From Nitrospinales bacterium (GTDB lineage: Bacteria; Nitrospinota; Nitrospinia; Nitrospinales; VA-1), in the NCBI GenBank assembly GCA_965262115.1, contig OZ253496.1:2272001-2336000 (forward strand): a stretch of DNA of 64,000 bases, given 5' to 3'. Both the position numbers and the translations under genes were made by a program. The notes beneath the pieces are model-generated. The model saw nothing but the letters and a program-made list of their open reading frames with translations, searched no databases and was not told the DNA's origin. This document shows positions 52,502 to 56,681 of the stretch, piece after piece (positions within the stretch are counted from its first letter, which is position 1; every line of letters starts with the position of its first letter).

Positions 52502-53683
52502 CTAATAAATCAGATATTCCTGCCGGAGCGGTGAAAAGGATGCCAATTCTTCCTGCCAGGAATTTTCCAATTCCTCCAGAGAAAAGCCGGGCTTGAAAAG
52601 GGTTTTCCGTAAATTCTCGTTACCATATAGGAGATCGATGGCCAGCCGGTCGCTGACGAACTCATAGGGTTCGATTCTCCACTGCAATCGGTCGGAATAA
52701 ATTTCGGCAATGGCACGTAGCAATGCCAGGGTTGTGAGCAGGGGTTTGAATTTGTTCCTGTCGGTGATGTGGAACTGGAGTCCGGCACAAATTTCTCCGG
52801 CGTGTTTCTGAAACATGGGTTTAAAATATTGCGGACGGGAAAACACACCGGGCAAGAGATGTGAGTCCGTTTCAAGTCGCGCGGCCAGTTTATCTGGATC
52901 AATGAAAGGGGCGCCGATTTGCTCGAAGGGCAGGGTGGTGCCGCGTCCTTCTGAAAGCCGGGTTCCTTCAATCAGGCACATTCCTGGATAGACGATGGCG
53001 GTTTCCAGGGTCGGCATATTGGGCGATGGTGGTGTCCAGACCATGCCTGTCTGATTATACCACATCTCCCGGCTCCAGCCGGTCATTGGCACGACTTTCA
53101 GGTCGCAATGGATATCATCATTGAACATCTGGGCGAGTTCACCCACCGTCATTCCGTGGCGGTTGGGCAGGGCATATTGCCCGACAAAGGACCGCCAGGG
53201 TTCTCCTACCAGATTGCCTTCTACCGATGTCCCGTTTATGGGATTGGGCCGGTCACAAACCACCATCCGCATCCCGGCCTGCTTGCAGATGGTCATGCAG
53301 TTGGCCATTGTATAAATGAATGTGTAGTAGCGCGCGCCGACATCCTGAATATCGAAAACTAGATTATCAATACCCTCTAATAGCGCTGGATCAGGAACCA
53401 GAGACGCTACATTTTTCCCGTATAGGCTTTTTATGTTGAGTCCTGAAAGCGGGTCCACCTCGTCAGCGATATGGACCATGTCCTGTGCCGTTCCATACAG
53501 CCCATGTTCAGGAGCGAATAAAGCTTGCAGCTTGAAACCTGTATGGGATTTAAAATGAGAGATGGAGTGCCTGCCATCGCCAGCCAGACTGGTGTGGTTG
53601 ACGATCAACCCAACCGTCTTACCTTTTAAATATTTTTCGGGCTGGGACAGTAAATGGTCAATTCCTGAAACGGTTCGTGTCAT
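52502..53683 (-). CDS. DUF1343 / NamZ exo-beta-N-acetylmuramidase
   Basis: FAPEHG, FDIQDVGARYYT, DRPNP, RHGMTVGE, SPNMP, SEGRGT. Confidence 0.92.
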   Translation of the reverse strand: MTRTVSGIDHLLSQPEKYLKGKTVGLIVNHTSLAGDGRHSISHFKSHTGFKLQALFAPEHGLYGTAQDMVHIADEVDPLSGLNIKSLYGKNVASLVPDPALLEGIDNLVFDIQDVGARYYTFIYTMANCMTICKQAGMRMVVCDRPNPINGTSVEGNLVGEPWRSFVGQYALPNRHGMTVGELAQMFNDDIHCDLKVVPMTGWSREMWYNQTGMVWTPPSPNMPTLETAIVYPGMCLIEGTRLSEGRGTTLPFEQIGAPFIDPDKLAARLETDSHLLPGVFSRPQYFKPMFQKHAGEICAGLQFHITDRNKFKPLLTTLALLRAIAEIYSDRLQWRIEPYEFVSDRLAIDLLYGNENLRKTLFKPGFSLEELENSWQEELASFSPLRQEYLIY

Positions 53684-53786
53684 CGGGCAGGTAATATGTT
53701 TTATGAAAGGGTGCGTTGAAAAATTATGGGTTGCTTGCCGTGCGAGAGAATAAAAAGGCAACCCCCCTCAATCCCCCCCTCTAACA

Positions 53787-53954
53787 GAGAGCTTTGCATA
53801 ACCCAAGATTCTTCGTTGCAATAGCTCCTCAGAATGACAAAATATCCTTTTATTGTCATGCTGAGCTAGTGATATTTAACCATTGCTTTCTTGCCCCGGA
53901 GGGGTATGTCGAAGCATCTCGCTTTTCTGCTTTATAGACTTACGCAAAGGTCTC
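53787..53954. mobile_element. MITE copy 4 carrying one 39-bp unit (53868-53906)
   Basis: same ends; perfect TSD CCTCTAACA; sits inside a CCCCCC...GGGGG palindrome. Confidence 0.92.
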
Positions 53955-53978
53955 CCTCTAACAAGGGGGAAGATCACA

Positions 53979-54016
53979 TTTAGCCGAGATAGCCCTTTTA
54001 GCCGAGATAGCCCTTT
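53979..54016. repeat. 18-bp tandem duplication
   Basis: TAGCCGAGATAGCCCTTT x2. Confidence 0.8.
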
Positions 54017-54099
54017 GCAAGCCGTCAAAGTTTATCGCTCATTGTACCCCCTTCTACCCCTTGTATGTTGTTCATAAGGGGAATTTGTAGTAGTTGTAC

Positions 54100-54285
54100 C
54101 TGTGAGCCCTGTGGGAAGCCGGTTTTGTGTTTTCCACAAGCTCCCAGGATTTGATTCAGGGCACAATAGATCGTTTACCCCTTGGGCTTTTAAGCCCGTC
54201 CCGAAGCGCAGATCGTTGTGTCCTATTTTGATTAACCCGAACAGTTGCCTGGGCCACTGAGCCCGCATCGGCAAGGCTGGGAGAC
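54100..54285 (+). ncRNA. bridge-RNA-like guide RNA of the IS110 element (ends approximate)
   Basis: target loop TTTACCCCT (54174-82) and CCCGAAG (54200-06); donor loop ACAGTTGC (54241-48) and CAAG (54272-75); each loop contains an internal hairpin. Confidence 0.85.
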
Positions 54286-54291
54286 CAAATT

Positions 54292-55242
54292 ATGAATCAG
54301 AAACCCCATTTTATTGGCATCGATATTTCTAAACTCCATCTGGATGTTGCTGACAGCATGACTCAAGAAACCTGGCAAACCGCTAACAATGAGGAAGGGA
54401 TTGCTGGTTTGGTCGAGAGTTTATCCGCCTTAAATCCTCCATTGATCGTTTTGGAAGCCACAGGCGGCTTAGAGATCCCGTTGGCTTCGGCCCTGGTTGC
54501 GGGTCGACTGCCAGTAGCCGTGGTCAACCCACGGCAAGTTCGTGATTTTGCCAAAGCCACCGGGAAACTGGCAAAAACCGATGTCATTGATTCTCTTGTG
54601 CTGGCCCATTTTGCCAAGGCCATACGTCCTGAGGTCAGGAAAATCAAAGACGAAGAATCTCTGGAACTCTCAGCTCTAGTGACACGCCGTCGCCAGTTGA
54701 TCGAGATGCTGACCAAAGAAAAAACCCGTCTAAAACAAGCTCCAAAATGGATATGTAAAGACATTAAGGAGCATATCGAATCTCTTAAAAAACGCTTGCG
54801 AAAAATCGATGGCGACCTTTCCAGAACCATCAAAAACAGTTCTGCCTGGCGTGAGCACGACCAGATCATACAAAGTGTTCCCGGTGCCGGTCCCGTTCTG
54901 GCTGTCAACCTCTTGGCCGGGGTTCCGGAACTTGGAGTTCTTAATCAGAAGCAAATCGCCGCCCTCATCGGTCTCGCTCCCCTCAATCGGGACAGCGGAA
55001 AGTTCCGGGGCCGCCGGTGTATCTGGGGCGGCCGCGCCAATGTGCGTGCCGCTTTATACATGGCCGCCGTCACTGCCATGCAGCATAATCCCGTGATTCG
55101 TACCTTTTACACACGCCTCATCGAAAAGGGCAAACCCTTTAAAGTTGCCATTACCGCATGCATGAGAAAGTTATTAACGATCATCAATACCATGATCAAA
55201 ACAAAAACACTCTGGAATGAAAATCTCATTGCCAGCACTTGA
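54292..55242 (+). CDS. IS110-family DEDD recombinase/transposase
   Basis: GIDISK, LEATG, KTDVIDS (RuvC-like DEDD); RDSG serine; GGRANVRAALYMAA. Confidence 0.96.
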   Translation: MNQKPHFIGIDISKLHLDVADSMTQETWQTANNEEGIAGLVESLSALNPPLIVLEATGGLEIPLASALVAGRLPVAVVNPRQVRDFAKATGKLAKTDVIDSLVLAHFAKAIRPEVRKIKDEESLELSALVTRRRQLIEMLTKEKTRLKQAPKWICKDIKEHIESLKKRLRKIDGDLSRTIKNSSAWREHDQIIQSVPGAGPVLAVNLLAGVPELGVLNQKQIAALIGLAPLNRDSGKFRGRRCIWGGRANVRAALYMAAVTAMQHNPVIRTFYTRLIEKGKPFKVAITACMRKLLTIINTMIKTKTLWNENLIAST

Positions 55243-55259
55243 CATTTAACACAGTTGCT

Positions 55260-55325
55260 TCGGGGCATGAAGCCAATGAAGAGGGCATAACAGGGGCATG
55301 AAATTTACTGAGTAGATAAGCTCCA
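55260..55325 (-). repeat. nested pair of ~40-bp units interrupted by IS110 (remainder at 54040-54059)
   Basis: near-identical inverted copy of 56596-56687. Confidence 0.9.
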
Positions 55326-55328
55326 CGC

Positions 55329-56573
55329 CTAGTGGGGAAATTTAAAACCTTTGGGAAGAACAATGATGTTGGATTCCTCATCGACGAAGAAACGGCCTTT
55401 ATCCTGCTCCAGATCATACCCCATAGTGGTGTTGGGGGGAACCTCAACATCCTTGTCGATGATCGCCATATTAATTTTGCAGTTTTTGCCGATTTTTACC
55501 CGGTCCATCAACAAAGAGTTGATGACCGCCGCGCCACTGTCGATGCTGACCTCACGACCGATCACCGAGTCCTGCACAATTCCTCCGCTGATAATGCTTC
55601 CTTCGGCAACGATGCTGTTGACGGCCTGGCCCCGGCGCCCGTCCTCATTAAAGACGAACTTGGCCGGTGGCGTTCCGTAGCTTGCAGTTTTGATGGGCCA
55701 GTTTTTATTATAAAGGTTGAACTCGGGTTTGATATTTCTCAAATCCATATTGGCTTCCCAGAATGCTTTGATAGTGCCGACATCCCGCCAATAGCCGATT
55801 TCTTTTCGGGTGATACCAGGAATCCGGTTTCTGCGAAAATCGTAAGCGAATACTCTGGATTTTTTGAAAACCCGGGGCAGGATGTCTTTGCCGAAATCGT
55901 GCGAGGACTCCACATCCGCCGCGTCGTCATGGAGCATTTCAATTAAAGCATCTTTGTTGAACAGATAGTTACCCATGGACGCGAAGGCTTCATGAGGTCT
56001 TCCAGGGATGGGTTTCGCGCGTTTGGGTTTTTCTTTGAACCCTGTGACTCTTTGCTTTTCCTGCACCTGAATCACTCCAAACGAAGATGCGTCTTTAAGA
56101 GGTACGGGCAGGGCGGAGATGGTGACCTCGGCCCGCTTTCGCACATGAAAGTCGATCATTTGTTGCAAGTCCATACGGTAGATATGGTCAGCGCCGAAGA
56201 CGGCGATGAGGTCGAAGTCTCCATCCTCAATCAAATTGATGTTCTGATAAATGGCGTCTGCTGTGCCGCGGTACCAACTGTCTCCCGTGCGTTTTTGTGC
56301 CGGGACAGGGAGAATGAAGTGGTCACGCAAAATGGAACTGAAGCGCCAGCTTTCCTGTAAATGTTCGGCTAGTGACTGGGACTTGAACTGGGTCAGAACG
56401 TAAATAGAATAGATTCTGGAATTGATGAAATTGCTCAAGGGGAAATCAACCAGCCGATACTTTCCACCAAAGGGGACAGCGGGTTTAGCCCGTTGTTGGG
56501 TGAGAGGATAGAGTCGGCTGCCCTCGCCGCCGGCAAGAATCATTCCGAGGACTTTTTTTATCGAACCGGCCAT
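55329..56573 (-). CDS. glgC: glucose-1-phosphate adenylyltransferase
   Basis: LAGGEGSRLYPLT..RAKPAVPFGG, WYRGTADA, ASMGNY, DFGKDI, YWRDVGT. Confidence 0.97.
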   Translation of the reverse strand: MAGSIKKVLGMILAGGEGSRLYPLTQQRAKPAVPFGGKYRLVDFPLSNFINSRIYSIYVLTQFKSQSLAEHLQESWRFSSILRDHFILPVPAQKRTGDSWYRGTADAIYQNINLIEDGDFDLIAVFGADHIYRMDLQQMIDFHVRKRAEVTISALPVPLKDASSFGVIQVQEKQRVTGFKEKPKRAKPIPGRPHEAFASMGNYLFNKDALIEMLHDDAADVESSHDFGKDILPRVFKKSRVFAYDFRRNRIPGITRKEIGYWRDVGTIKAFWEANMDLRNIKPEFNLYNKNWPIKTASYGTPPAKFVFNEDGRRGQAVNSIVAEGSIISGGIVQDSVIGREVSIDSGAAVINSLLMDRVKIGKNCKINMAIIDKDVEVPPNTTMGYDLEQDKGRFFVDEESNIIVLPKGFKFPH

Positions 56574-56600
56574 AAGGGTCTCTTCCACTCGGTGTGGAGC

Positions 56601-56681
56601 TGTGATATCTACTCAGTAAATTTCATGCCCCTGTTATGCCCTCTTCATTGGCTTTCATGCCCCGAAGGGGTAGAAGGGGTA
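56601..56681 (+). repeat. ~40-bp unit (56601-56631 + 56673-56681) containing a second 41-bp unit (56632-56672)
   Basis: TGTGATAT...CATGCCCC[TGTTATG...CATGCCCCGAAGGGGTA]GAAGGGGTA. Confidence 0.9.

Follow-up and report, generated by a model that had tools for sequence, protein, structure and literature searches.

A 1200-bp insertion sequence of the IS110 group (54060..55259, + strand) is located in the window analysed here, i.e., a stretch of 64,000 nt from the genome of a Nitrospinales bacterium (contig OZ253496.1; the host genome is a single contig of 2.68 Mb). Unless assigned to another sequence, coordinates are positions in this window. The 232-nt left end of the element very probably encodes a two-loop bridge RNA of the IS621 type, predicted to guide the DEDD/Ser recombinase of the element to TACCC-CT|TCGGGG in the loop of a host hairpin. 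Such an RNA of 177 nt was described for IS621 of Escherichia coli (Durrant et al. 2024, PMC11208160; Hiraizumi et al. 2024, PMC11208158), and bridge RNAs are predicted in 85.7 % of IS110-group elements (PMC11208160). The assignment is based on sequence comparisons, by which the ends and copies of the element, its site and allele specificity, the conserved fold and guide code of the RNA, the catalytic residues of the protein and homology to the IS621 RNA could be demonstrated.

The element starts with CT-TGTAT and terminates with ACAGTTG-CT; it carries the CT core at both ends, has no inverted repeats, and its ends are identical in 23 full-length copies. The left core (54060-61, the first two element bases) follows the left flank TCTACCC (54053-54059), both together forming left target plus core (54053..54061, +) in agreement with the flanks of the 23 copies. 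At the right end (55251..55259, +), the left donor ACAGTTG (55251-57) precedes the second core CT (55258-59), which is directly followed by TCGGGG; according to copy flanks and repeat comparison, the right target TCGGGGCATGAAG.. (55260..55300, +) represents the body of a host hairpin repeat. All junction strings proposed in an earlier sequence-only reading of this DNA (donor ACAGTTG-CT-TGTAT, target TCTACCC-CT-TCGGG) were located at these places. Insertion is site-specific and without duplication beyond the core, uninterrupted sites holding one CT. The left non-coding end (232 nt, 54060-54291) is far longer than the right one (17 nt, 55243-55259) and contains the RNA, which is the layout of the IS110 group and not of IS1111 (PMC11208160). 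At the sequence level, these features are those of the IS110 group, and the reading of the element as the carrier of a bridge RNA of the IS621 type is supported.

Predicted bridge RNA: fold and guide code

All features of the predicted RNA are on the + strand. The basal stem of its target loop is formed by AGGGCACAATAGATC (54158..54172, with a bulged A at 54168) and GATCGTTGTGTCCT (54211..54224, defined from the alignment of relatives). It encloses (i) the left target guide TTTACCCCT (54174..54182; 7 nt for the left target and 2 for the core, deduced from flanks of copies and relatives) with T at 54183 as linker, (ii) an inner hairpin GGGCTT-TT-AAGCCC (54184..54197) with the linker GT (54198-99), (iii) the right target guide CCCGAAG (54200..54206) as well as (iv) the handshake guide CG (54207..54208). 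The 5' side of this loop corresponds to left target plus core and its 3' side complements core plus right target, the right target guide being the exact reverse complement of CT-TCGGG. Therein, A54204 reads the T following the core; it is replaced by C in two copies of the host genome (variant B). C54207 would pair with donor position 7 (G), as judged from relatives and from the definition of the handshake guide for IS621 (PMC11208158). The linker base 54183 (T; G in variant B) was considered as a tenth guide base for right-target position 1 and was rejected, fitting both variants and just 6/17 relatives.

In the donor loop, the basal stem consists of CCCG (54236..54239) and its partner UGGG (54278-54281), and the inner hairpin of GGGC-CACTGA-GCCC (54251..54264; GGGC 54251-54, GCCC 54261-64). 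The 5' side carries left donor plus core as the left donor guide ACAGTTGCC (54241..54249; ACAGTTGC, 54241-48, in the shorter form of the sequence-only reading), recognized by comparison with the right end ACAGTTG-CT. The 3' side complements core plus right donor in a discontiguous manner: the right donor guide AUCGGCAAG (54267..54275, 9 nt) would pair with CT-TGTAT by AU, two unpaired bases (CG), a G.T pair and CAAG (54272-75). This follows the scheme reported for IS621 (A157-U158, U159-U160 flipped, G161.T12, C162-G165; PMC11208158). In variant B, an A replaces the G of the G.T pair at donor position 12, yielding A-T. The handshake guide GC (54276..54277) follows, with G54276 predicted from relatives to pair with target position 7 (C). 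The loop strings, stems and inner hairpins of the sequence-only reading are all present at their positions and their assignments are upheld by the relatives; its right donor guide CAAG is likewise present, but constitutes only the last part of the 9-nt guide, as in IS621.

Upstream of both loops, a 5' region (54070..54139) is predicted from the minimum free energy (MFE) fold to form stem-loops including CUGUGGGAA../..UUUUCCACAG at 54110-54139. This region is not alignable among relatives, and cyanobacterial relatives are devoid of it, their left end beginning ~10 nt before the target-loop stem.

Conservation of the fold was assessed with relatives from one genome per species (80 loci, 48-73 % protein identity), hosted by Nitrospinaceae, Dehalococcoidia, cyanobacteria, Burkholderia and others. 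Of 57 anchored left ends, two too short and one with N were removed, and the remainder was collapsed at >93 % alike to 49; 12 of these, most with long insertions, were left out and the window element was added, resulting in an alignment of 38 rows. Across the 27 pairs of the four helices, 92.7 % of the 1026 cells are paired, and two-sided (compensatory) changes occur in 21 of the 27 pairs (124 cells). None of 500 shuffles matched any of five structure measures, and controls with slid partners were 33-45 % paired. In detail, paired cells amount to 93 % for the target-loop basal stem with its bulged A (helix 1; 13/14 pairs compensatory), 94 % for the target-loop hairpin (helix 2; 3/4 pairs compensatory), 87 % for the donor-loop basal stem (helix 3) and 97 % for the donor-loop hairpin (helix 4). 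Thus, two stem-loops with internal loops, the IS621-type arrangement, are supported by covariation.

A covariance model (R1) was built from 36 relatives, excluding the window element and its closest relative (L035). The sequence-only reading had proposed such a model for scoring the left end, and R1 finds 54149-54292 (+) over its full length with 116 bits and an E-value of 2.8e-27, the next match in the 64 kb having an E-value of 0.5. With filters off, it also matches the left end of an E. coli plasmid element, directly before a transposase annotated as 'IS621 family' (L136:547-705; 34.6 bits, E-value 1.8e-8), and the region upstream of an ISEc32-family transposase (L137; 44.4 bits, E-value 7.2e-11), all of these E-values being rough owing to short calibration. 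In L136, ATCAGGC|CT|TGTAT marks the left end, and the guide columns of the alignment read AUCGGGCCU; target ATCAGGC-CT and guide AUCGGGCCU agree with the published IS621 specificity (PMC11208160). Comparison by covariance model therefore supports homology of the window RNA to the left end of the IS621 family.

The sequence-only reading had both loops closed by an outer stem, i.e., a three-way junction in which CTCCCAG (54141..54147) pairs with CTGGGAG (54277..54283). These strands are complementary in the window copy, forming seven perfect pairs which are used by the MFE fold, and the 5' strand CTCCCAG is kept in 7/23 copies (window copy plus six, both variant-B copies included). In the 16 other copies, representing the most prolific sublineage, it reads CTCACAG, an uncompensated mismatch; it is changed to CTCACAA in L035 and to TCCACAG in L030, and cyanobacterial relatives have no sequence in this region. 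Moreover, GGG at 54279-81 is required on the 3' side of the donor-loop basal stem. The basal stem is kept in the 38 relatives as GCCCG/CGGGC (helix 3), and the IS621-family locus L136 has the same layout. A functional outer stem is accordingly considered unlikely, the conserved pairing being that within the donor loop's own basal stem, CCCG 54236-39 / UGGG 54278-81.

Agreement between guides and flanking DNA was determined for relatives whose ends had been defined from donor features alone: upstream, the exact CTTGTAT encountered first, and downstream, the 7-mer of the left donor followed by CT. Attempts to find boundaries by column agreement had failed in 4/8 multi-copy families, and searches for donor motifs were used instead. 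On the right side, 125 of 140 bases matched at the five positions beyond the core (28 loci with a right end; 5/5 in 20 of them), compared to a permutation mean of 42.2. On the left side, the five core-proximal positions yielded 134/170 matches (34 loci; 5/5 in 18) versus a mean of 65.9, with poor scores mostly reflecting register shifts by 1-2 bases. On neither side did any of 10,000 permutations reach the observed value. In case of multi-copy families from other genomes, 142/165 right-side bases matched, with 22/33 copies at 5/5.

The handshake guides pair with non-cognate DNA at position 7. The target-loop handshake base pairs with donor position 7 in 36/38 relatives and with its cognate target position 7 in 0/34; conversely, the donor-loop handshake base pairs with target position 7 in 33/34 relatives and in the cognate manner in 6/38, changing to T where target position 7 is A. 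The guide assignments of the sequence-only reading are hence borne out both by the relatives and by joint changes of guide and target within the host genome (see below). The 7-nt right target guide named in that reading is not a novelty: this length is the rule for the clade, and right target guides exceeding those of IS621 in length had been reported (IS621 papers 2024).

Two members of a Dehalococcoidia family (L056, L059) occupy a common non-cognate site TGAC-CT-GTGTCGTT, matching the guide at 1/5 bases; the site comparison suggests a recurrent off-target.

The sole Rfam match in the region, to sX15 (RF02234), is on the minus strand with 36.1 bits versus a gathering score of 55 and corresponds to the reverse complement of the bridge RNA (54145-54301). 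sX15/asX7 is described as a plasmid-borne antisense pair of Xanthomonas, with 10 chromosomal homologues in Stenotrophomonas maltophilia (PMC3300014). The bridge RNA of an IS110 element may correspond to asX7, with sX15 being its opposite, wrong strand. The sX15 alignment also prompted a pairing between 54150-58 and 54293-301; it crosses the outer stem and was dismissed, since no conservation was evident by eye in L030, L035 and L055.

Genomic copies and the target hairpin repeat

The host genome harbours 23 full-length copies of the element as well as fragments. While 21 copies are 98-100 % identical to the window element, the two variant-B copies (1180 bp) share 88 % identity with it. At least 99.2 % identity to the window copy is reached by 15 of the 22 other full copies, and the intact 316-aa open reading frame (ORF) is present in 15/23. 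The comparison of all flanks, proposed in the sequence-only reading as a check, places 23/23 copies between ..(A/C)CCC-CT and CT-KCGGGGCA and none in unrelated sites; the left flank is ..ACCC-CT in 21/23 and the right flank CT-KCGGGGCA in all. Among the 23 copies, 16 different left flanks of 30 nt were found, and 20 different pairs of left and right flanks.

Insertion takes place in the loop of a host hairpin, CCCC-TnC-GGGG, at the head of a repeat of ~40 nt (TACCCCTKCGGGGCAYGAAG...), of which one 41-bp tandem was observed (G-N-A being the other strand of TnC). This repeat had already been named as the target by the sequence-only reading, and it hosts 23/23 copies. Repetitive extragenic palindrome-like targets are a habit of the IS110 family (PMC11208160). 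Uninterrupted hairpins CCCCTnCGGGG occur 49 times with A, 36 with C, 42 with G and 33 with T in the loop, compared to ~1.3 expected by chance for each specific 11-mer.

The use of these alleles is highly uneven. Among 25 right junctions, 23 carry T and two carry G, while A and C are represented in none. Both G junctions belong to the variant-B copies, which have the guide CCCGCAG versus CCCGAAG elsewhere. Position 54204 thus differs in step with its expected partner base in the target. Since T-allele sites account for 56/185 hairpins, exclusive use of T would arise by chance with a probability of ~5e-8, assuming that the 14 distinct variant-A left flanks are independent and the alleles random. 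In genomes of the same genus, the guide also occurs as a third allele, CCCGGAG (G019, G016), and the elements abut CCGGGG, TCGGGG or GCGGGG on the right. Hence a single guide base (A54204) is predicted to discriminate between loop alleles of the host repeat.

As a tentative extension, sublineages differing by the one guide base which reads the variable N of the G-N-A triloop (T and G here, C in the same genus) may each colonise their own allele of the 41-nt repeat, with loop polymorphism and guide co-diversifying. If so, unread loop alleles would represent immune landing pads.

Alternatively, the protein could recognise the shape of the target hairpin, the left end being a 5' untranslated region or translation regulator and its flank matches incidental. 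Such a role would suit the target, whose hairpin (CCCC-TKC-GGGG) bears the core in the loop, the additional specificity contributed by the target stem-loop in case of ISPpu10 (bioRxiv 10.64898/2026.03.19.712850), and the overlap of the donor-loop basal stem with the likely ribosome-binding site (see below). However, the A and C alleles have the same shape and are used in 0/25 junctions, target base and right target guide differ jointly between copies of one genome, and the 28 relatives attain their 125/140 guide-flank matches at unrelated, mostly non-hairpin targets. In addition, the RNA is homologous to the left end of the IS621 family, and the IS621 RNA is necessary for recombination in vitro (IS621 papers 2024). 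Recognition by shape is therefore regarded as most improbable, and RNA-guided target choice remains the preferred reading. The notion of the recombinase as mover of the 41-nt mini-repeat has no support, as the repeat carries nothing like the donor ends.

An unoccupied, inverted copy of the same target (GTACCCCTTCTACCCCTTCGGGGCATGAAAGCC; 56620..56680, - strand, from repeat comparison) is located beyond glgC (55329-56588, - strand). The occupied (55258, +) and empty (~56667, -) targets are thus inverted around this gene and would constitute an inversion substrate if a second copy landed at the empty site. The target hairpin is preceded by 9-bp units TACCCC(C)TTC in tandem. Both the occupied site of the window (54041-54059) and its inverted empty counterpart (~56667) have two such units; the copy at position 2384089 of the host genome (G000:C1 ~2384060) has three. 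These units may be footprints or variants of the repeat. The public sequencing runs listed for this sequence include none of RNA. In four runs compared with the window, all of them contigs, the element is collapsed as a repeat and no joints were observed; one loose end, with TACCCCTTCTACCC before 55258, could stem from an empty allele or from the paralogous empty site at ~56667, the two being indistinguishable.

Truncated and rearranged copies also occur. A 5'-truncated copy (L022:1480-1530; G000:C1 ~2034326) has its breakpoint exactly at the DNA of the left target guide and is joined there to a left flank of host type (..AAAGCTA|TTTACCCCT|TGGGC..). As guide-coding DNA represents a pseudo-target of left target plus core, this copy looks like the product of recombination at an internal half-site. 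At G000:C1:2144617-2145980, bases 1-165 of the left end run directly into a complete copy (junction ..GTTGTGTC-CT-TGTAT), an arrangement that could result from nested insertion and subsequent deletion; the internal site is unlike the target. In a Phormidesmis relative (L054:1290-1335), a right-end-like TTGACATTTAACAC is fused to the left-target-guide region, replacing the target-loop stem.

Recombinase, putative junction promoter and proposed mechanism

The recombinase of 316 aa, encoded by the single ORF of the element (54292..55242, +), comprises a DEDD RuvC-like and a Tnp/Ser domain, as apparent from Pfam (PF01548, DEDD_Tnp_IS110, 1.6e-24; PF02371, Transposase_20, 1.9e-20; both above curated cut-offs) and structure alignment. 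The nearest solved structures are those of ISCro4 (E-value 9e-33) and, next, IS621 (E-value 5.8e-30). Residues D11, E55, D97, D100 and S235 align with D11, E60, D102, D105 and S241 of IS621 (index of the structure chain = native + 2), for which the catalytic roles are taken from PMC11208158. Accordingly, the catalytic D-E-D-D motif and the conserved Ser are present.

A likely Shine-Dalgarno sequence (GGGAG/GGAG; 54278..54283, +) is located 8 nt before the ATG and is overlapped by UGGG of the donor-loop basal stem; once folded, the bridge RNA could therefore block translation of the transcript it is part of. In relatives, the ribosome site is mostly further downstream than in the window element.

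Promoter-like motifs are split between the two ends. A -10-like TATGTT (54064..54069, +) at the left end conforms to TAnnnT in 31/31 loci, and a putative -35 sequence TTGACA (55239..55244, +) overlapping the stop codon has at least 5/6 matches in 24/31 loci. With the ends joined, TTGACA would precede TATGTT by 17 nt across the circle junction, suggesting a junction promoter as described for IS621 (PMC11208160).

By analogy to IS621, the following sequence of events may be proposed. Excision would fuse the element's right end to its left end via the CT core, giving a circle, and thereby create the TTGACA-17 nt-TATGTT promoter, from which an RNA of ~210 nt starting near 54076 would be transcribed. 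This RNA would bind to a recombinase tetramer; base pairing would link its two donor guides (left 54241-49, right 54267-75) to the junction ACAGTTG-CT-TGTAT and its target-loop guides to the target. Top-strand cleavage after the CT core via a Ser-DNA intermediate, handshake-assisted strand exchange and resolution would then follow, and exchange at this position would insert the element without target duplication. The high copy number fits either cut-and-paste combined with replication or a copy-and-paste model (10.64898/2026.08.31.748434).

Several findings weigh against this reading. In the integrated copy, a promoter/terminator scan detected nothing on the + strand, sigma-70-like sites included, and a scan of 53500-55800 against Rfam 15, which contains no bridge-RNA family, yielded no family at threshold. 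Folding of the single left end, a check suggested by the sequence-only reading, did return the loop 1 stem, the hairpin and the outer stem, but with an MFE of -74.9 kcal/mol (z -1.65) equalled by 13/200 shuffles the stability is not significantly above that of shuffled sequences. The case consequently rests on comparison rather than on folding energy, for which the roughness of the R1 E-values also has to be considered. The guides themselves are imperfect, TTTACCCCT matching left flank plus core at the window site in 8/9 positions and ACAGTTGCC matching ACAGTTG-CT in 8/9 in all copies, and the left flank of two copies is ..CCCC-CT. Among relatives, L055, L056, L059 and L072 reach just 1/5 at their sites, and a 5'-truncated, 90 % identical copy of the same genus (G013) carries the guide CCTGGAG at a site CT-TCGGGG (3/5).

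Other unfavourable observations concern activity, and they would also be compatible with a genuine bridge-RNA element that is a fossil here, its copies having arisen mostly from duplication of larger repeats. Ten copies have one 30-nt left flank in common, six share the same 10-bp deletion leading to a 264-aa product, both variant-B ORFs are broken, and fragments and a partial tandem copy exist. The common flank of the ten copies lies in a larger repeat, so not all copies need be independent insertions. This repeat (GTATAAACCGATATCTCATTGGGAACCCTTCGAG + hairpin + ..CACAAAGATAACTGCC) carries the target and is empty at G000:C1:696150, 1392070, 1667678 and 2683863; its four occurrences without the element mean that filled and empty versions coexist, which speaks against a fossil, as do the 16 distinct left flanks with 20 distinct flank pairs, the 15 intact ORFs and the at least 99.2 % identity of 15/22 other full copies. 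A fossil state is accordingly judged quite unlikely.

With this element, a marine lineage contributes a bridge recombinase that is compact (316 aa) and apparently was active recently; its guide code is fully readable from the sequence. It offers a natural case of single-base retargeting, as two sublineages in one genome occupy the two matching alleles and leave two alleles of equal shape untouched. It can serve as a benchmark for specificity and, in screens for tools, as a candidate orthologue; how the mechanism is understood remains unchanged.

Comparison with known systems

The element is a clean further example of the bridge-RNA mechanism reported in 2024 and not a new mechanism. It shares with IS621 the two protein domains, the five catalytic residues, the CT core and the right donor TGTAT, a bridge RNA located in a long left end opposite a very short right end, and the order of 5' region, target loop and donor loop. 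Agreement with the published IS621 descriptions extends to the G-U linker before the right target guide, the bulged A in the target-loop stem, the right donor guide of 9 nt with its discontiguous pairing and its G.T at donor position 12, the handshake dinucleotides, the predicted junction-split promoter and the host hairpin-repeat target. The IS621 donor as given in the sequence-only reading (ACAGTAT-CT-TGTAT) is consistent with the positions given in PMC11208158 and with L136, although the main text of PMC11208160 does not contain it.

In contrast, the proteins share only ~30 % identity (30.8 % by tblastn to the IS621-family plasmid locus), and the recombinase has 316 aa versus 328 residues of the solved IS621 chain (including two extra N-terminal residues). 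The target is TACCC-CT-TCGGG instead of ATCAGGC-CT-AC, and the left donor ACAGTTG instead of ..AT. Pairing by the right target guide comprises 7 nt (core + 5) compared to 4 in IS621, the predicted 5' region is longer (~85 nt), and the donor-loop stem abuts and overlaps the ribosome-binding site.

The best-scoring solved relative, the ISCro4 bridge recombinase (PDB 9t56, E-value 9e-33), is nevertheless distant and was compared by protein alone. ISEc32-family elements of enterobacterial plasmids (L137) share 44 % protein identity with the window element and have a left end matched by R1 at 44.4 bits, yet their guides differ. ISPpu9 and ISPpu10 of Pseudomonas putida likewise belong to the IS110 family and are described to insert in multi-copy repetitive extragenic hairpins (PMC12288879; bioRxiv 10.64898/2026.03.19.712850), but in another host and with another target than the element of the window.

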